In this document: in pieces, positions 3,227 through 59,500 of the stretch
Layout: each line of letters starts with the position of its first letter
Position numbering within the stretch: the first letter of the stretch is position 1
Origin: Catajapyx aquilonaris
Taxonomy: Eukaryota
DNA: 64,000 bases
Assembly (NCBI GenBank): GCA_000934665.2
Contig: KZ538082.1
Coordinates: forward strand, 1 to 64,000
Direction: 5' to 3'
Notes under the pieces: model-generated
Database searches by the model: none
Seen by the model: the letters and a program-made list of their open reading frames with translations, nothing else
What the model was told of the DNA's origin: nothing
Position numbers and translations under genes: made by a program

Positions 3227-6200
3227 CTAATAACTGCAAGAATAATTCAATATTATAGATATTTGATGGTTGGGTAAAGCAGAAAAGTGCAACTGACAAT
3301 AAGATAAAAACGTGTGAAATTTACCACTGAACATATCGCGTGAGATCGCACAATTTCCGCCTCCTGTCGAAAAGCATCCCGGGAGGGCACGTGAGAAGCA
3401 TTGCTTGGTAATCGATGCAGACAATGACCAAACTGCAGTCGCCAACCACTGGAAAGTATCCACTACGAGCTGGGCACCGGTAGTTAAGCAGCGTGTTTGC
3501 CACTAGAAAAAATCAGGCATTAGGTCAGTGCAAAGAGTGTGTGTCATAGATGCCATCAAGCATTGTTAGCTTTTGTTTTCTGTAGGAGATACTGCAACAT
3601 TTTCTTTAGATCAGAAGGTGATAATGTACAAAATTAATATAACGGCCTTGTCCTTCTTCACTCGTAGTCATAATCTATTCGGTACTGGAGGTCATTGGAA
3701 GCACTAGATGTACCTGGAGCATCTGCTGGATATGGCTTGAGCTGCCCATAAGGCGCCTCCAATTCAGACGCAGGTATGTGAACCTGGTGCTTGTTACCTC
3801 CACTGCCTCCGGATGGCCTACCACTGCCACTGCTTGATAGCCTGCCACTGCCACTGCCTGAAGGCCTACCACTACCACTGCTGGGATAGCCTCCTCCTCC
3901 AGTGATTCCAGGTGACTCATCAGAGTCGCCGTGGTCAGTGTCCAAAATGTCCGTCTTAGTCGGACGGAAGGGAAACGACGACGGCCTGACCACCGAGGTG
4001 TCTTCGATGTATGTAGAGTACCCTGGAGCATAGTCAGCGTACGGAAAAGGTGGCCTTCGAATAATGGCTCCTCCGCAAGGAGTCAGGTAGTCATAGTTGC
4101 ACACTTTCAATTCCTGTTCAAGAAGACAGAGCATTAGTTACTTTGCAATAACACCAGATCTATTCTAGATATACCTGGCTATAAAAAGTTCCGGCAGGAC
4201 ATCCCTGCCTGAAGGCCAGTCCTCCAACGCAAGTGATAAACTCCGAACAATTGTACGCACTTGCGAACGTTCCGAAGGCTTTTGGACAAGGCGATCCATA
4301 AGGCACTAAAGGTCCTGTGGAGGAAAGTATGTCAGACACACCATTTCCTTTACTACGCATAGATGAACATACTGGACAGTCGTCGTCCAGCACATCTGAC
4401 GTTGCTGGGGTAGTCGCAGACGGGCTTGAGAGGATGGTCGTTAAAGAGCAGGCCTCGAGGACATGTCTGAACAGCCACATTACCGTCCCAGCAATTGTAG
4501 AATTTGTCACAGTAGACGTCGTGTGGGTACTGACCACGAGAACGTGAGCATTGGGCTTCAATCTCTGAAACTTCAAATATAATTTTTAATTATATATGCC
4601 AATAGTGTACTGTACGTCACAATTGTGTAGGACCAGCAAGTACCATTTCCTGCACTAGCCCGACAATGACGTGTTTATGCTAAAGAAATGGGCGTGGAAT
4701 TAGGAAAACAAATTGAGAGAAGGAAGGAAGGAGGTGCAAGTGCAAAATCCTGTTTCGGTACCGAAAAAGGCGTCCGTAATTTAAAAGTGGGCGTGTTCGC
4801 CCGATACATTCGATCTGCTACTTTACTGATCATGTTCTGAGACTTTGGTCAAGAGGTGCATTAGAGCAGAAAATCTACTTCCCCCATGGTTCAGCCTGTC
4901 CCATCACGCTTAATTGCCCTTGCCGTTTTACGTTTCCCTTATGAGGAAGGCCGACCTGACTTGAACTTGGATCCAGATGAGGGTTCTACCTGTCGGTCCC
5001 CCAAACCATCAAAGGGCCGCCCAAGGCATTGCCCGGCTCATTTCATTCAGGTAATGAGAGCCGCCTTGCCAAATTTGATATTAGGACGATGGACCTTGAA
5101 GTGGAGGTATAAAGTGAGGATTCGCACGATGTTATTCTTTTCTTGCCGTGTTCTAGGTGGGTGGGATTCATTTATCATTCCTTGAACCTGTCCTAATTGG
5201 GCGGAGATTGTTTACCTTCCTGCCTCTGAGAGAAACTAGCGAAATATACAGGGTGACGTAAAATGTACCAATTTGCATATACTTACAGCAATATACCAAT
5301 TTGCATCATCATGTGTATAAAGTGACATCGTATTTCACAAATGCAATGTCTATATAATTTTAATTTCGGAATAGCACCAGAAGTATAAATTAAGCCATCG
5401 AATTAGTCACAGCAAGGATGACACCTACAAAAAAATATGCGGTACAACCTTGGCAGTTATGACACAGCCAGGTAACGGATTATAAAATGTATCGCCCTCC
5501 TCATTTCGCCTTGAACCATGATGGGATGGACTTTTTGATCTGTCAGCGTGACTTGTCCGAATCGCCCTCGATGGTATTGTGGACCAAGTGTGACCAAAGA
5601 GGGTCCCGGCGGCCTTCCCCAAATCACCGGGATCCTGGTGGTGGGCTGCTGGACATGGAGCGGAGATGGATGTATGGACGCTTTGATTCGCGATTTTCCG
5701 AGGTGGGACACGCCTGAATGGGCAATTCACACGGCGCAAGAATCTACAGGGTGGGCCTGCTTCCCCGGACTACCGCAAGGACGAATATATTGTAAGCTCC
5801 ACTCCTATTTTATGTCACTTCCATTCTCAGCAGACGGTGACGTATGCTAATAAGAAAGAGGACTCCTCCCTTCCTAATTTTGGCGAATAAAAAGGCACAG
5901 AGTGCGTTACGCCACAAGCGACAATGAAAAGGGAACTGGGATATTTGCGTAATCTCTAACCTCCACATGACGGTAATGAGTTTGAAAACAATGTATGTAT
6001 TACTGGTAATACAATCGTAAATCTTCTCGTAACAATATTAGCCCCCATAAGAAACTAATTCACGATTCGTATGGCGTGTCGGGAGTGAAGCACCTTGATT
6101 TGGATGTTGTGTGGGAAACGGAAACATTTCGTGCTCTATTTACTCGGAGTAGGCATTGACATTGGTTTGCGACATTCGTGTGGAATGTCCCTGTCATGTC

Positions 6201-46256: not shown

Positions 46257-47959
46257 ATGAAGATGCTTCTTACACTACTACTGCTGGCTCTCGCGGCTGT
46301 TGGTGAGTTATGGGCCATTCTTCTTTTAGAGTGTGGGGGACAAGCGACCTTGCTCTTGAGATGGATTGATTCTTTGCTCTTTACATTTGATGAAATTTTT
46401 TTATCGGACCATGGACATTGTTGATACCTTCGCATTTTCATTGTAGCGGACTACACATCTGATATTCTTTTCAAAAGGATGTGTTTTCTTTTATTGGCGT
46501 TGATTTGTAAAGGAGACTTCAATGATCGTATGGAGCAGTAACGTACTGTTTGCTAGGTGTTTCTTACTAGTGGGGCATCCGGCTGCTCGACATTATTTTC
46601 TCACCTGCTTGTATGCTTCATTAGTAGTATCAGGCAATCAGCTTAACTACTATGAAATACACGCCCATTGCTATCACAATCATTCTGCCAAATGTTTCAC
46701 AGTCACTTTTCGGTCAGTTGCGGTAAAGCCTTTCCTATGCACATATTACTGCTCTTTCCTTACGTGAAAATTTCATTGACATATTTTTGTGCACAAAACT
46801 TCGCATGAAAGCGCTTATGACATAATTATGTGTTTTCCTCAGGTTCATACGCCCAGTTCCAGTGCCCAGAACGTAATGGGTTCTTCCCTGATAGAAAGCA
46901 GTGCGACAAGTATTACGAATGCTTAGACAGCCACCCTGAACCCAAATACTGCCCAGACGGTCTTGCATTCGAGATCAAGAACCCCAACCACGAGAGATGC
47001 GATCTTCCATTTAACGTCGACTGTGACGGAAGGACAGAATTCCGTAAGTGTTACGTATCATTCTGGATTCTACGCAACCGTTCTGCTCTCAACCTTGCTC
47101 GGTAACGAAAAGGGACAAGCTTATTTTTGGATCCAAAACTTTCACTCGTTCCCTTGAAAGCATCACTTTCCCTTTGTGGACAAGTCTTACAAGTCAAATT
47201 GGTGGAGGTTGACAAAGAAACCGTTCCCCCCCCCCCCCCCCTNNNNNNNNNNNNNNNNNNNTTTTTTTGCTATAACATTTTATTTCCGTTCCCAGAGGAG
47301 CCTCAGTCCTCGGTTCAGTGTCCTCGTAAGAACGGCTTCTTTGCCCATGAGGACGCTCAAGTTTGCGACAAATTCTACAATTGCGTGGATGGGAAAGCGA
47401 ACGAACTGTCGTGTTCCGCCGGATTGGTTTATGAGGAAGAACGAGGTTCCTGCGTCTGGCCACAGGAGAGCACCAGGGAAGAGTGCAGGCATCCTAAGAA
47501 AGGTGAGTCACACTGACGTTTTCCAAAAACTATTGGAAATTCTTTTTCTGTGTTTGTGGTTCTTCGTCTCGCTTCATGGAGTTAACTCGGGTAATTTTGC
47601 GAGAAAAGAGAAAGCAAGGAACAAAAAAAAGAGGGTCTATCTTACAGAAAAGCTGGCCGATGGCTTTTCGTGCCCTGACGAGGAGGTGATTGGCGATAAT
47701 GGACGTGTCATACCTCATCCAGTGTACGCCAATCCTAATGATTGCCAGAGGTTTTATGTCTGCCACAACGGTGTTCAACCTCAGGAAGCAAGCTGTCCTC
47801 CAGGAACTGTATACAACGATGTCAAATTCAAGTGTGACGAGCCTGCCAACGTCAAGGGATGGTATGTCTCTTAGTCTTTATATACATGCAACTTATTACT
47901 GACAAATTTGCTTGTGTTTTAGCGAGGACTGGTTCAAGGACGAGACCAGGAGGAAATAA
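46257..47959 (+). CDS. CPAP3-A2: CPAP3-A2 (second obstructor-A-class protein)
   Basis: Exons 46257-46302, 46843-47043, 47296-47502, 47648-47861 and 47923-47959. A2-type motifs PNHERCD, CDKFYNCV.G..EL.C and KL.DGF.CPDEE.IG..GR.IPHP. The class label is from recalled insect A2 sequence. Confidence 0.85.
47243..47261. other. Assembly gap (19 N) between poly-C and poly-T runs in an intron; a single N also at 45777
   Basis: N bases in the sequence. Confidence 0.98.
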
Positions 47960-52387: not shown

Positions 52388-55300
52388 TTAATTCCTGGTT
52401 CGGAAGCGTCCCTGCTGGTTGCTGGCCTGCTGCTGAGGCTGCTGCTGACTGCCGAGGTCAGCATTGTCTTCTTGGAACCTCGGCCTGGACGGACGCTGAA
52501 GAGATCCGTCGGCGTTGTTACCACCTTCCTCCAAGGGTGGAGCAATGGTGGTGGGGACGTCGCAGTCCTCGGTCGGAGGAAGGACGCATCTCAGAGACCT
52601 CTTGTCGAAGACCAGCATGGCAGGGCACCGCTGAAGACGAGGGTATCCTCCTTGGCACTGCCAGTAGCGGTTGCAAGACTTGCCCAGAGGAACGTTGCCG
52701 TTGGCGTCGTCCTTGCACAGAGCTGGAGGCAGGAAAGGAGATAACACATGTTTCAGGCACCTTTGGGTCGCGTGCTACTTTGTTGCTAGTTCACATGTAC
52801 TCTATGCATGCATTAAGTGCTTCCTTGCTGGGGAGGAAATTGTGTGTTGGGATCGTTTCCGCTGGTTGTTAACATGCAAGATACTGTATCTTTGCGTAGA
52901 TTTCACGCCTAATACCAGAAGTATTGTTTTGCGTAGATTGCAAGATTGGTAGATTTCACCAAATTCTGTGTGAAATATTACGAAACGTTCCTCTGATAAA
53001 GAGAAATTATTGAACAGACCGAGCAAGAACATATGTGAATGGACAGTAATTTCTGAATTTCCAAGATAGTGCACTGCCCATAAGTTCCTAGTTCAAGAGG
53101 GGAGCACAAGTTGCTCCTCTACCAGTTGGTTACTGTTCATATAACCTTTTCCCCTATACATTTCTTTGGCCTGGGTAGTGTGCCATAACAGTCACGTTAC
53201 AATGGTTAATAACTCCACCAGGCGTTTGGTAAAACTTGGCATGCACACGATACCCTGCATGTGTAGTCAACACATTTCAGAATCTAACCTTATAGCAAAG
53301 GAGCTGCAGCCAGCCTTTCAAACTGAATCTCGGTAACATTGTAGGAGAAAGAACACAACTTAATTAAGTTTGATGGTATTTTCCAGAACGCAATGATTTC
53401 TGCCGAAAGCAATATTACTGGCATTAACCTACCAATAAATATTGTTGATATAACATGTTACTAAAGTTCCTTCTCATGATAAATAATGCGACAAAGAACA
53501 TTACTGTACATTGCACTAGGCCTATTTGCCTCATGATTTGTAATGTGGACATTCCATGAAAGAGATAGTCTATATCAGCCCGAACTTTCATATAACTCGA
53601 CACAATGCATTATTCATGCAGCATCTGCATACACCCCACCCAGTTGGTATACACTCACGGTGCTTTTGGCATCCTGGTACATTTTCTGGCCAGTCGCAAG
53701 AGTGGGTATCTTCGTTGTAAAGCAGTCCTCCGATGCACTGCAGTTCGGTGGCAGTTCCGTTCCAGCATGTCCAATAACGCGTGCAGGAAGTCTCATGACC
53801 GAAGATTCCGTACAGCCAGTCGCAGTGTTCCGTTCCAATGGGAGGATCTGCGAGTAAGCAATTTTTCCTTATTAGCAATCAAGGTCACCGTTTACCATCT
53901 CCTCTCTACATAATTTGTTCACAATGACCAGAAGAGTGTAGGAAAGTAGCCATGAAAAGGTTGTTAACACGCCATTATTTTTGCATGCAAAGTGTTTCGT
54001 GCTTAATGAAGAATATATAAACAAAAGAAACATTTTCACATAGACTAAGTATGTATATACAATAGGAGATCCACACAGGCGAGGGAGGACTTTCAGTTTC
54101 CTTCCGGCGACCTCCTTCCTACAGAAACAGAAGGGCAGAAGGTAACGAGTGACCACGTCACGAAAAACGGAACATGTTAGAAGAGTCCATCAGCACACAG
54201 AGGAAGGCAGAAGAGTGTCCAACGGGCCAGACGGTGTCATCTTCATCGCCGAACTTACTGGCATGCTGCTTTCCGTCACAATAATTGCTTCTCCATGGAT
54301 AGTCACAATTGTCAGCCACCCCTCGGTTCCTCCCGGCAAAGACAAGTCCGTTGGGGCAGTCGAAGAGTTCCGGCTGTCCTCCGATGCACTCCCAGAACCG
54401 GTCACAGTAGGTCACATCTCCGACGACCCTGCTCTTGGCCTGGCACGGGTCAGCCTGGTCGTTCCGCTGCCCTACACCTGAGGAACCAACAAAAAGGTCA
54501 GACAAGTCATGCTGCGTGTTACTCACTTCTTTTGGGCCTCGTGCTGCAGTCCACCTCGTAGTTGTAGTTGCACACTTTGAAAGGAGAGGACAGGCTTACG
54601 AAGCCGGTGTAGGACAACCCATTGGGACAGTCCCGGACCTCCTGCTGCTTATTGTCACCCACACAGGCGTAGTACTTGTCGCAGTACTCCTCATGCGGTG
54701 CGGTCTTCGATTTGGTCGTACATGCATCTTGTGTCATGGCTCCAGTCGAAGGGAAAAAGAACATGAGGTAAGATGAAACTCTCAAAGAGAAAACGTCAAA
54801 TCTCGGTCGACAGATGCCATATGCCACGCATGTGATTTTCACGCTTAAGGTTATGCAGAAAGAAGTGCAGCTCTTCACGAGGCGATGAGCAACAAGGGAT
54901 CATTTCTTTCCGCCAGTTTTCAAGATGAGCGCCCAACAATCGGCCCACCAACCTAATTGCTCCAGGGAAAGCGCTTTTGGTGAGAACCTTGACTACATTT
55001 GGACCCCCCACTTGCTTTCTCAGGAACATACGGACCATCGATGCGCAGCCCAAGAATGTTCGCATGATTTTCCCTATCGGTTGGGCAAGCCAGCAGTATG
55101 GTGTCTGCTGCATGCAGTTGGGAGGGGCAGAATCCACCGAGGGTCGCCGAACTCCAAGTGGGTGACTTGGGCGAAAGGGGCCTCAACTACTATGCACACA
55201 CACATTTACCTCCAGGTCCTTTCTCTCTGCTCGACGACCGCCGGAAGTTCCAGCTGCTTCTTACTACTGGAAATGTAGCCTCCAAGGATGCAATCACTCC

Positions 55301-56592
55301 ACTTGACATTCAACTATTTTTTTAGTCAATTTGTATAATCTAAAACCGGTTCAAGAATGCAAGCTTGGGATCAAAAAGCCAGCTGCCCTCCATTATAGCT
55401 GCGTTAATAATACACGCCAGGCTGCATTCTAAGCACCATCGTAAAAACGCTCCAAAGCGGTTTTTAATTGTCTGCAACATGGGAGTGAAAGTGTTTCTAA
55501 GAATATGAGGACATTTCTTCAGGAGAATCTGAATGATTTGTCTCGCCATGTATTGGTTCTTCATTGAAGACCTTGGATGCCTCGGAGGCATGCCAGGCAA
55601 GGAAGGGCATTTTCACTTTCTCCAGAGCGTCTCCGTACGTGTGCAGTACGGTACACTGGATGGGTGTGCAAGCGGGAATAAATATTCCGAGGCCTTGGGT
55701 TTCGCTTCAGAAAAACACTTTACTGGACACTTTCTCCTCATTAAAGGGTGATCCTCCTTTTTTTCCCCTGCCCAATGCCAAGGGCTATTTCTGGAAGTTC
55801 CTGGTGGAACAAGGTGATGTTTGTCATTTCTGGTAGGCATTGTTGCACCCACTTCTTCCTTCACATTTTATGAGTTAATTCTCGTTTGTACACACTGTAG
55901 GTGGAGAGGCAATTAACGCCCATATCTGCCCACAAGTGGCGGTATTTTTCTTTGGAAGATTTTACATGTCTTGAACTTTAGATTATAGAGGCTTGCCCAC
56001 CATGGGAATTTGTACGCAGACGGAAGTGTCAGATTATGTCAGGATGGCACAACGAGGACCTACAAACAATGGATGCAAATGGCTATTACAGTGAAAATGA
56101 AATTTGAAGTGAAACTGGGAACTTTCGAGGGCTTCCTAAAGCGCCTTTCTTTTATGCCAAAGAAAATAAGCAAAAAATGCTTTCACGTGCATGTAATTTG
56201 CCAGTGCAAAGAACACTGCTCTTACAGAACAAAGACTGACAGACACGACATTGAAAGTGATATTAACATAATATTTCAACATGTTAGTAGATACAATTGT
56301 TTTCTAATGACTTGAAAAACCTAACTGGACCCACCTGGCAATTCAGCAAAAACTAGTCGCAGATCTTCATACTTTTATGGAACCAGTCGATCGCTGGCCA
56401 TAAAGTGCCAATTATCCTTGAGAAGATACCAAATGACTTTCATATTGAATTGCGCATAGAGCAGTCATTGAACTCGAGAACTTCATGTTCTATTGCATAA
56501 CATTCTTGCATTTTTCTTATAACATAAATCGTGACAAACTCACCATTGGCCACCAGCCCAACAAGCAGCAATCCTGAAGCAAATGCCCACAT
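52388..56592 (-). CDS. CPAP3-D2: CPAP3-D2 (obstructor family), Gln-rich C-terminal tail
   Basis: Exons 56592-56544 (MWAFASGLLLVGLVAN), 54477-54259, 53847-53659 and 52722-52388. Motifs VVGDVTYCDR.WEC..DCPNGLVFAG..CDYPWR, PPIGTEHCDWLYGIFGHETSCTRYWTCWNGTA and NGNVPLGKSCNRYWQCQGGYPRLQRCPAMLVFD. Confidence 0.93.
54527..54739 (-). CDS. CPAP3-D2: Second (alternative) domain-1 exon of CPAP3-D2
   Basis: 213-nt phase-1/phase-1 exon: MTQDACTTKSKTAPHEEYCDKYYACVGDNKQQEVRDCPNGLSYTGFVSLSSPFKVCNYNYEVDCSTRPKR. Six Cys intact; donor A|GTGAGT; atypical acceptor (ttcccttcgactgGAG). Confidence 0.78.
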
Positions 56593-59500
56593 GACTTCCT
56601 TCCTTCCTGACCAAACTTCGAATGGAACACCTCGCGCCTAGTGAGAGTCTGCTGAAAGAGTTGGAAGGTCGTCCCACTCCAACCAGACGCTGCAACTTCT
56701 TGTTACTGTTCCTCAGACGTCAATTCCAGAAGCTGTCGAGGATGAACCTTCAGCGACCACCACTTGAGTTGGGTCGCAACACAGTAATACCGACCTCCAG
56801 CTCTTCCTCACCGATGTCTTATAGGAAACTGGGCGAGGTCCTCCATCTCCCCTCCTTCTTGTTGGCCACCCTCCTTCTCCATCTCCCCGTCCCAACCCTT
56901 CCCTCCCTCCCTCCCTCCAAAAGCACCCCACACCCCCTACTGAAGGACTCTCACCTTCCTGGCCAAGTGACCTCAATCTTCACTCTTCCACGCCGCACGC
57001 CAACCTTCTTCATCAGTCTGATATGCTCGGGACGCAACAAAGACATGGGGTGAGGGGTGGTAAGGGAGGGCAAATAAATAAAAAAAAATGTTGAAAAGTG
57101 AGTAGGCTTCCGACCGGTTGCAACAGATGCTGCAGCCACTTCTTGGACAGCTTCATTATAAAAGAGACGTCAAGTTCAGTCCCACGCCCATGGTTGTTTT
57201 ACTGATATTGCATTATTGCTGCCATCAAGGTCCATTGTTGAGCTCTGATTTTAAAGGGGGCGAAAAGGGTTGGAGGCAAAAAAGTGGGTTTAGGGTGTAT
57301 TCAAAGCTCGAAAGTGGCATCACATGCAGATGATCGTGTTAGATGCTTGCGTTCAATTCGCATGTACTTAGATGATGAAAAAAAAACATTTGGGAAAAAG
57401 TTATTACTTTCTATAGATTTTTTGTGCGCAATGACACATTTGGAACATTTGCATGGCTTGGGATGAAATCAAAATTTAAAGCAATTTTTGTTACAAAGTA
57501 AGTAAAACGCTACTGTTAAATTTCACAGCAGGACAATAAATTGCTGTACACAATTAGATTACGCGTACAAAAAGCATCCCGGTTTTGACAATGTGTGTCA
57601 CATGAAGTGCTGTAATTCAAATCAAAGCAAATCATACAATCTCTTTGATCTTAAGATTCCAATCACCCTTGGAGATTAGAAAGGGGGGTGTCTTAACCTT
57701 GCAGTTAATATAATTGGTATAATTTGTCTGGAAAAATAGTTTTTTTCATATTGATGGCCACTCTGGAGATGAGATTTGGAGCAGAGTGAATCTTCTGCAC
57801 ACAGTTAGTTTAGAAAGGAAGTACTGCAAGAGAAAGGAGGAGGTGAAAATCGGCAGTAGGAGGTGAGAACATTCCTATCTTAAAAACGATTCACAAATAG
57901 GATAAAGGGAGGAAAATTGACCGTACTAGATTTCGTGGTATTTCCCTCTATTGTAGGGCCACACATGAGGAAGTGCTCTTGTTACGTGACTTGCTCCATA
58001 TTGAATCTAGCGTACTTTCTGTTGGAAATCAGCGAACATTATACAAGCTCAGGAAAATTAAGCGATGCCTCAAAAATCTTTAACAGTCAGTAATTTTAGG
58101 TCAAGATCAGACAGAAAAATTCTCATATCCAGACACGCATGCATACAAAGAGACTCATAAATCAATTTCATATGCTGCACATTTTAGTGTCTTACACTAA
58201 TTATTTCAAAGTAGGCTGCAATCAAACGGCGGAACATCAGAGAAATGGTCAATAACAGTCCTTTCTCTTCTTTGCGAATGGTTTTCACGCTCTTGACTCT
58301 TTTCCCCTTCTTTCCTCATTTGCCTGTAATTTCTTTAAGAGCAAAAACAAACCTTTTCATCCTCCCTTGCCGTTAAAATGAAAGGGGGCTTGATACCCAA
58401 AATGAGGGTTGTCCTGCTCACAACATTTGACAGCGAGGTTATACAAATACGGACATGAACAATACCCGAAGAGACGGGCTAATGCTTCGTGTGCAATATA
58501 GGTCGCCATACACCAGTGGATAACTTCGACCTCATTATTCCGGTTATGAAAACCAGCAGACATGAATTTATATCTTCCCACGATTGAATTAGACGAATGA
58601 GAATGGTAACGAAGGGCATTATAATGTTGACTTTTCTTTTGGCTCCCATCACTTTGAGGAAGCAAAAGTGTCCTCCACTTTCACTTAGCAGAAGAGCATT
58701 ATATTGCTCACGTAGCCAGAAGTCCAACAGCACTATACAGTAATAGGGAATGTATACTGGGATGAAAGCCAGGCGACAACACACATGTTTATTTCAGACT
58801 CTGAAGCGAATGCATCACGTGGATGACGGCTTTCGACCAGTTTCTCCCAGTTGGAGGTCGAGCTGCATCTTTCACTCAGACTCTTACTTCTTTTGGCCTA
58901 ACTTGGCGACCTAGACCTTCAAAAAAGAGATGGCATCTGGTTAGGAGAGGCATGACTTGTTAGTCCGGTCTATTTTTGGGTGCTTGTCCGTGAGAATCTT
59001 CTTCGGAAGATGACTTACAATGTGATGGTACGTGAAACTAACCGATTTGTATTCAATGCAGTGACCTCACCGCATCGTAATGGTTAACCTTCACCTTTTT
59101 ATAGGTTCCCTGGCATTTTAAAAAGTGTTTAAAGATATACAGAGTTTATGGTAGGAAATAGGCTAAAATTAATCACGAGCGACCTACTCCTCCAGGCTAT
59201 GGAAACCCAACCTGTCCGCCAGCTCCCCAAAGAAAGGTCATCACAGTTTCAAATATTATTATAGCTTTCTACCTCGCACTAATTGGAAAAGCAGCGATCG
59301 AATGATAGTATCCGACGAACCATGTGACCAAACCAGATACCTTGCGCTCTTTTACGATGTCACCTCTCTTAATAAGGACTTACTCTGCAAAAATTAATAA
59401 CAAACGAGCTATGTCTGTGTAGGAAAGGAATTCTTAAGTAATAATAAGCAATACACTTCCGCTGTTTGGTTGGAAATTAATTATGTGTAGAAGCAGAAAA

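Follow-up and report, generated by a model that had tools for sequence, protein, structure and literature searches.

We examined a stretch of 64,000 nucleotides (nt) from Catajapyx aquilonaris (contig KZ538082.1 of assembly GCA_000934665.2, positions 1 to 64,000 of the forward strand; this whole stretch is referred to as the window) and found on its minus strand a gene for a three-domain chitin-binding protein of the CPAP3/obstructor type in which the exon coding for the first domain is present in two tandem versions, 2a and 2b. The reading that we favor, and hold to be fairly likely, is that 2a and 2b constitute an old pair of mutually exclusive exons, and that joining of 2a to 2b is probably blocked sterically by the 49-nt spacer intron that separates them. 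This reading draws on direct observations of the anatomy of the gene, the homology of its domains, the conservation of the pair and of its short spacer, and the single-choice products present in relatives. Specifically, exon 1 would provide the start of a signal peptide and would then be spliced to either 2b, which has a strong acceptor and a highly conserved canonical domain, or to 2a, which has a weak acceptor and a faster-evolving domain with the signature PHE-x-YCDKYY, which is also characteristic of first domains in chelicerates. The chosen exon would be joined to exon 3, giving rise to a secreted protein with three chitin-binding domains in which only the first module differs. With a spacer of 49 nt, the 2a donor and the 2b branch site would lie too close together for U1 and U2 to occupy the same intron.

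The introns of this gene, and six other introns used for comparison, were modeled from homology and GT/AG boundaries. The resulting features, in the order in which they are transcribed, are as follows.

Exon 1, coding part: 56544..56592, minus strand, encoding MWAFASGLLLVGLVAN and supplying the first base of the codon that follows; ATG at 56592-56590, donor GTGAGT at 56543.
Intron 1: 54740..56543, minus strand, 1804 nt when exon 1 joins 2a.
Exon 2a (ALT), alternative first chitin-binding domain: 54527..54739, minus strand, 213 nt, phase 1/1, six Cys, end ...DCSTRPKR.
Spacer intron between 2a and 2b: 54478..54526, minus strand, 49 nt (checked by script), GTGAGT...CTGAC...CAG.
Exon 2b (CAN), canonical first chitin-binding domain: 54259..54477, minus strand, 219 nt, phase 1/1, donor GTAAGT.
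Intron between 2b and exon 3: 53848..54258, minus strand, 411 nt; with 2a used, the stretch removed is 54526-53848.
Exon 3, second chitin-binding domain: 53659..53847, minus strand, (N)PPIGTEHCDWLYGIFGHETSC...GCQKH, phase 1/1.
Exon 4, third chitin-binding domain and low-complexity C-terminal tail: 52388..52722, minus strand, including the stop codon, with the stop at 52388.

Exons 3 and 4 are separated by an intron of 936 nt. Every junction of the gene is in phase 1, and the lengths of 2a and 2b are both divisible by three. Exon 1 encodes the shared start of a signal peptide, as judged by eye from its hydrophobic core; when joined to 2a it reads ...LVAN-A-MTQDAC and when joined to 2b it reads ...LVAN-G-VGQRND, the intron removed in the latter case also spanning exon 2a and the spacer. 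An initial annotation of this DNA had described two tandem domain-1 exons in phase 1/1 that lie 49 nt apart and that each carry their own signal-peptide-ending residues (AMT-Q and GVG-Q), and the coordinates, splice sites, lengths and translations of both exon 1 joins all agree with this description. Exon 2b has a strong acceptor with a good pyrimidine tract and CAG (...ttggttcctCAG|GT, donor A|GTAAGT), whereas the acceptor of 2a is weak, reading GAG|CC with a G at -3 (...ttctttttcccttcgactgGAG|CC, donor A|GTGAGT). A second in-phase AG (AAG|AT) located 12 nt inside 2a could provide an alternative exon start at 54727 (54727-54739 in the window), which would drop A-M-T-Q to give ...LVAN-D-ACTTKS, and this candidate acceptor is also weak relative to that of 2b. 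A separate promoter and start codon for 2a were considered and ruled out, as translation from the sole in-frame upstream Met would begin MFFFPSTGAMTQ..., a stretch of insufficient length for a signal peptide.

Each of exons 2a, 2b, 3 and 4 encodes six Cys and belongs to the CBM_14/ChtBD2 family. Relative to the curated Pfam CBM_14 cut-off of 22.1 bits, exon 3 scores 53.4 bits (E=2.7e-14), exon 4 scores 47.5 bits (E=2e-12), 2b scores 34.1 bits (E=3e-8) and 2a, at 24.1 bits (E=4e-5), lies just above it. When compared to each other, 2a and 2b are identical at 18 of 42 residues (43%, E=4e-12), so that they are homologous tandem exons of like size and the same phase. Among longer proteins, a search with 2b returned 52 matches, which mostly show 65-79% identity and belong to insects and crustaceans; weaker matches came from horseshoe crabs, and a Tachypleus (chelicerate) relative was matched at E=2.7e-15. 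Nearly all of these 52 relatives are ~250-320 amino acids (aa) long, and the 12 that were inspected all combine a signal peptide with three domains. The names that some of the relatives carry are 'obstructor-E(-like)', 'chondroitin proteoglycan-2' and 'chitin-binding type-2 domain protein'. Note that we do not regard the RefSeq name 'obstructor-E-like' as an orthology call. With either 2a or 2b the product has a signal start (judged by eye), three ChtBD2 domains and a variable C-terminal tail, features by which we assign the gene to the CPAP3/obstructor family of three-domain cuticular chitin-binding proteins. Chelicerate orthologues are given only for CPAP3-D1 and D2 in Table 1 of PMC3504105, which, next to the chelicerate relatives of this gene, is an indirect hint at the putative CPAP3-D2 identity used in the initial annotation.

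We explored the distribution of the two first domains in relatives, where ALT denotes a 2a-type first domain, CAN a 2b-type first domain, and D2 and D3 domains 2 and 3. A HMMER search with 2a over 1.84 billion representative sequences gave 174 proteins at E<=0.001, many of which are long multi-domain proteins that match piecewise. The matches also include exon-sized short open reading frames (ORFs) that are 52-59% identical to 2a over residues 3-70. Named sources of ALT sequences in this set are the springtail Orchesella cincta and Artemia franciscana, and taken together, ALT sequences are spread over Orchesella, Artemia, copepods, lobster, crab and isopods. The homology of the ALT ORFs stops after R-x-x-R/H followed by S[KNE] in at least 15 of 17 aligned sequences, two tails being too short to judge. 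The residues after this motif are unrelated, as would be expected if the gene caller had read through a phase-1 GTAAG/GTGAG donor located at the same place as that of 2a. Across 18 aligned ALT sequences, 2a among them, 13 columns are invariant, and 2a retains all 13 as well as the six Cys. One invariant residue is the His of P-H-E-x-Y-C-D, which is absent from the canonical exon. Exon 2a had been called strongly diverged but intact, and both parts of this description hold, with an end branch of 0.68 as compared to a median of 0.1 in the tree described below, and with 13 of 13 invariant family positions kept. We read 2a as a member of an old exon family and not as a local oddity.

A separate observation concerns the end of the ALT exons, which reads R-x-x-R just before the domain 2 junction (RPKR at 54528-54539 in the window). 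Of the two Arg residues, the first reaches a conservation of at least 90% across the 18 ALT sequences, and the last is invariant in seven closer ones. R-x-x-R is the minimal furin-type convertase motif, and the canonical exon, which ends ...GKQHA, does not contain it. The ALT isoform might be cleaved between domains 1 and 2 by a furin-type convertase.

A search with the ALT profile that was restricted to proteins of 267-2000 aa gave 90 matches, which a crude motif classification sorted into the following layouts.

ALT-D2-D3: 54 of 90 profile matches.
CAN-D2-D3: 14 of 90 profile matches.
ALT-CAN-D2-D3: 3 of 90 profile matches.
ALT-CAN genomic read-through ORF: 1 of 90 profile matches.
Other or partial: 18 of 90 profile matches.

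The 54 proteins with an ALT-D2-D3 layout include one chelicerate-like and one barnacle protein in which the single first domain is intermediate. The clearest case of alternative products is provided by Tigriopus californicus, for which RefSeq contains an isoform X1 (XP_059094159.1, 355 aa) with the layout ALT-D2-D3 and an isoform X2 (XP_059094160.1, 288 aa) with the layout CAN-D2-D3. These two proteins have in common MENFKAKLLLLFSILVS and all residues from NPRISTEHC on, and differ only between these parts. The Panulirus ornatus protein 'obstructor-E-like isoform X2' (XP_071546403.1) is likewise ALT-D2-D3. An ALT profile built from seven closer sequences found eight related loci on metagenome contigs (L001-L008); no relative was found when ALT and domain-2 alignments were searched against the genome contig collection and the domain-2 alignment against viral contigs. 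On contigs L001 and L002 the ALT domain is joined straight to domain 2, with L001 continuing into domain 3, and because of this direct joining both contigs look like they derive from spliced RNA.

The starts of the alternative exons carry further information. On contig L003 each of the two exons opens with hydrophobic residues that lead up to an AQ|K site, the ALT exon with CLLLMGSTSPSFILAQ|KS (...SFILAQ|KS) and the canonical exon with FAAAFLIVSTSAQ|KK (...VSTSAQ|KK). The corresponding signal-peptide ends in Tigriopus are ATSGQ (ALT) and VSAQ (CAN), and the Orchesella alternative exons likewise each carry their own end. As each alternative exon in L003, Orchesella and Tigriopus has its own signal-peptide end, each should join exon 1 directly, which constitutes an argument from sequence for mutual exclusion in these species. 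The window exons have the ends ANA|MTQ (2a) and GVG|Q (2b), and here the signal-end argument for exclusion is weaker, given the short exon starts (A-MTQ, G-VGQ). The proposal that the gene swaps its first chitin-binding module is strengthened by the presence of the pair in other pancrustaceans, by Tigriopus X1 and X2 that differ only in this module, and by the 54 of 90 matches that join ALT to domain 2. Overall, the gene very probably does swap this module, and the predicted mutually exclusive use of 2a and 2b is well supported by the relatives.

The age of the pair was addressed with a tree of 61 first domains over 57 columns, in which many forks are unresolved. All 22 canonical domains, from insects, crustaceans, L003 and the window (2b), fall into one clade with a support of 98/96, and the ALT domains of the same genes fall outside of it. 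This indicates that the duplication predates the split of the lineages that have both exons. The ALT domains do not form a single clade; chelicerate first domains nest among them, and the one centipede domain in the tree branches off as the sister of the canonical clade (90/80). Exon 2a, with its long end branch, falls among ALT exons of the Artemia and Orchesella type, and ALT domains evolve fast in all lineages of the tree. We take the 2a/2b-type duplication to be old and the canonical copy to be the one that evolves slowly. There are no named insects among the ALT matches, which is a weak negative.

We next consider the spacer. As the initial annotation had pointed out, its 49 nt are fewer than those of any other modeled intron (54 nt or more in that annotation), all of which are at least 58 nt in our analysis: six other short introns in plus-strand genes of the window measure 58, 58, 59, 59, 74 and 131 nt, and the other introns of the same gene measure 1804, 411 and 936 nt. 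The CTGAC that had been singled out as branch-like is indeed the only YTRAY motif in the spacer, with its A located 29 nt from the 2a donor and 20 nt from the acceptor. Two of the six short introns (58-59 nt) contain a YTRAY motif, with the branch A at 35 and 39 nt from the donor versus 29 nt in the spacer. Short spacers are also found elsewhere. Specifically, on contig L003 (metagenome DNA) a 294-nt ALT exon is followed by an intron of 47 nt (GTATGT...CCCCGTAG), then by a 255-nt canonical exon, an intron of 135 nt and domain 2. Its canonical domain is close to that of Orchesella, and its acceptors show the same contrast as those in the window, with AAG for the ALT exon and a pyrimidine tract followed by TAG for the canonical exon. 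We deduced a spacer of 37 nt for a Tigriopus-like genomic ORF (P0295) from a one-base-shifted read-through tail in which 13 of 15 canonical-start residues are compatible; this 37-nt solution is unique, and both AG and TG are possible at the junction. By eye, the 49-, 47- and 37-nt spacers have no evident sequence similarity.

Published minima place the spacer close to the limit of what can be spliced. In flies the minima are ~35 nt from the 5' splice site to the branch and ~15 nt from the branch to the 3' splice site (PMC5762160), in humans a distance of <50 nt from donor to branch has been used as a criterion (PMC5740500), and in C. elegans, where the minimum is ~40 nt, mutually exclusive exons are separated by spacers of 14 and 30 nt that are regarded as too short to be spliced (PMC4165533). 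Nonsense-mediated decay cannot police the choice of exon in the window, as the frame is preserved both when the two exons are included and when the two are skipped. The earlier proposal that steric hindrance would enforce exclusive use has points on both sides. It is favored by spacers of <50 nt in two other lineages (47 and 37 nt) and by a branch A that is 29 nt from the donor as compared to the fly figure of ~35 nt, and is countered by the splicing of 40-50-nt introns in flies and by ALT-like exons on two contigs (L006 and L007) that stand alone. Given these data, we infer the steric block itself and regard such blocking of 2a-2b joining as plausible.

Several points weigh against our reading. 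As fly introns of 40-50 nt are spliced, more slowly (PMC5762160), a length of 49 nt is at the edge and not proven too short. A well-preserved ALT-like exon (...EDPCKLTNVKTT[PT]HVTHCDRYYAC...REKR, donor GTAAGT) is present on metagenome contigs L004-L008, and on L006 and L007 no canonical or domain-2 exon was found in the ~3 kb downstream of it, so tight spacing is not universal; on L005 neither was found in the ~1.4 kb downstream. The lone exon of L006 and L007 reflects either long introns in that organism or an exon of another gene. Spacer bounds deduced from protein read-through are wide for three further sequences (41-65 nt for P0107, 31-67 nt for P0115 and 21-123 nt for P0211) and are not counted as support. 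A joint 2a-2b product is in frame (...RPKR-S-VGQRND...) and has no internal hydrophobic stretch here, such that a four-domain protein is physically possible. The long end branch of 2a comes together with its unusual GAG acceptor, and a word-based search with 2a among longer proteins gave no matches. The RefSeq isoforms are database annotations. Finally, the use of both exons in C. aquilonaris, 2a included, is something that we infer.

The alternative that best survives is that the exons are exclusive but that the spacer is not the enforcer. The weak acceptor of 2a would then compete with the strong one of 2b, and regulators or RNA pairing would contribute to the choice; the spacer length of 49 nt would have arisen as a by-product when the exon was duplicated in tandem within a compact gene. 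The splicing of short introns in flies and the L006 and L007 ALT-like exons, at least ~3 kb away from any canonical exon, fit this view, as do the P0211 spacer, which may be at least 72 nt, and an inverted repeat (I3) of 15 nt and 87% complementarity that pairs 56480-56494, at the start of intron 1, with 54755-54769, upstream of 2a. However, this repeat is one of eight inverted repeats in the 2.8 kb from 53800 to 56600 and may be there by chance, and shuffled sequences fold at least as well as the 131-nt region around the spacer (z = +1.5). A spacer of <50 nt that is kept in three lineages (49, 47 and 37 nt) without evident sequence similarity also speaks against a by-product, as does the clustering of the window's other short introns at 58-59 nt. 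We consider this alternative unlikely, though worth keeping in view.

A second alternative is that both exons are included, always or often, to form a four-domain protein, which the shared phase of 2a and 2b, their lengths in multiples of three and the in-frame joint product would permit. Annotation models containing both first domains exist for Chionoecetes opilio, Armadillidium nasatum, A. vulgare, Tigriopus californicus (TRY63299.1 and EukProt) and Orchesella cincta. All such models are, however, non-RefSeq genome annotations: the three ALT-CAN-D2-D3 proteins derive from GenBank (Chionoecetes opilio and Armadillidium nasatum) and EukProt (Tigriopus), and GenBank TRY63299.1 from Tigriopus and a partial Orchesella cincta model fuse the ALT and canonical exons likewise. 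The Tigriopus models with both domains are contradicted by RefSeq, which has the two three-domain isoforms X1 and X2 at the same locus. None of the other 87 profile matches carries both domains followed by D2-D3, and the lengths of nearly all 52 relatives of 2b fit three domains, which is also the number present in each of the 12 that were fetched. In addition, the canonical exon of L003, Orchesella and Tigriopus opens with a signal-peptide end that would be misplaced inside of a protein. Routine inclusion of both exons is thus quite improbable, and the fused ALT-CAN database models are likely annotation errors. As a matter of record, the fused four-domain models in our set are P0061 (Orchesella cincta, partial), P0208 (Armadillidium nasatum), P0210 (Chionoecetes opilio) and P0301 (Tigriopus californicus TRY63299.1). 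Least probable of all, by a slight degree, is that 2a is a decaying relic that is open by descent and no longer spliced in, for which one can cite the longest ALT end branch in the tree bar one barnacle sequence (0.68), the G at -3 of its acceptor, a best identity of 59% to any relative and a Pfam score barely above the cut-off (24.1 versus 22.1 bits), and against which stand its 71 open codons and consensus GTGAGT donor, the retention of six Cys and of all 13 invariant columns, and the fast evolution of ALT domains in all lineages.

Steric interference has been proposed for exons 2 and 3 of mammalian alpha-tropomyosin. The systems that most resemble our preferred reading of an exclusive, closely spaced pair are Tigriopus californicus X1/X2 and Panulirus ornatus X2, which like the window have an ALT (PHE-x-YCD) first domain followed by D2-D3, with a canonical (YCDRYWEC) alternative in Tigriopus X2 after a shared signal start. 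The Tigriopus-like contig also shares with the window a very short ALT-canonical spacer, with 37 nt deduced. Unlike the window, the copepod ALT exon has a linker of ~75 residues before the domain and an extra Cys within it. Isoform pairs had been said to be known for some insect CPAP3 genes, and two such pairs were located. In Drosophila obstructor-E a/b (Tajiri et al. 2017, PMC5226733), tandem homologous alternative exons of a CPAP3/obstructor gene also lie behind one first exon, and the fly products differ in function. However, each fly alternative exon holds all three domains, its authors found the arrangement within Brachycera alone and 0.1-1.1 kb separate the ORFs, whereas in the window the swap affects domain 1 alone, the two exons are 49 nt apart and their pairing is much more ancient. 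We rejected the fly arrangement as being the same thing, as exon content differs, with one domain per alternative exon and domains 2 and 3 shared in the window. Exons 5a and 5b of Tribolium CPAP3-C (PMC3504105) likewise give two three-domain proteins by alternative exon use in a CPAP3 gene, and the two partly compensate for each other; in contrast to the window, this involves another paralogue and another exon, the fifth. In regards to the spacer, C. elegans egl-15 exons 5B/5A and let-2 exons 9/10 (PMC4165533) resemble the window in having homologous exons of a multiple-of-three length, an intron near or below the minimum and double inclusion that stays in frame. The C. elegans spacers of 14 and 30 nt fall below the ~40-nt minimum by a clear margin (PMC4165533), whereas the margin in the window is narrow, with 49 nt versus the local cluster at 58-59 nt.

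The arrangement is thus not new in kind, as alternative exons in CPAP3 genes and steric exclusion are both known, and the pair itself is annotated in RefSeq for a copepod, with ALT as an isoform X2 for a lobster. Our literature searches turned up neither an account of alternative exons for the first domain in this group of genes nor a paper on the Tigriopus or Panulirus isoforms. In the literature searched, three aspects seem to be undescribed: how old the pair is, that it exists in a hexapod-like genome and that a spacer of <50 nt recurs. CPAP3/obstructor proteins organize chitin in the arthropod cuticle, and two forms of one fly obstructor gene control body shape (PMC5226733). If our reading is true, then a first-domain switch that springtail-like hexapods share with brine shrimp, copepods and decapods would imply that a single gene has long retained two chitin-binding specificities side by side. 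It would also explain the ab initio four-domain predictions in several crustaceans and Orchesella, models that are probably wrong and could be corrected by annotators. The recurring spacer of <50 nt would furthermore provide a clean natural system, beyond vertebrates and nematodes, in which to test whether mutually exclusive splicing is controlled sterically. A more speculative extension, which we put forward tentatively as a possibility that is rather more doubtful than probable, is that a sterically locked switch has been kept since before the divergence of copepods, malacostracans, branchiopods and hexapods, with the <50-nt spacer as a conserved device. ALT would then be the ancestral, chelicerate-like module and the canonical domain a pancrustacean innovation under stronger constraint, insects would have lost ALT, and the R-x-x-R of ALT may serve a proprotein convertase that frees a single-domain chitin binder.

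The window contains additional CBM14/obstructor-type genes, with about six on the plus strand (26000-51300) and one on the minus strand (4150-4600). As further family genes are present on the plus strand at ~26-51 kb and on the minus strand near 4.4 kb, the region reads as a CPAP3/obstructor gene cluster. A database protein from Strigamia maritima (P0207, 1095 aa) looks like several neighboring obstructor-type genes fused into one model. Finally, the 20 N in the window occur as one run at ~47243-47262 that follows a poly-C tract in an intron of a plus-strand obstructor-type gene, and this run is probably an assembly gap.

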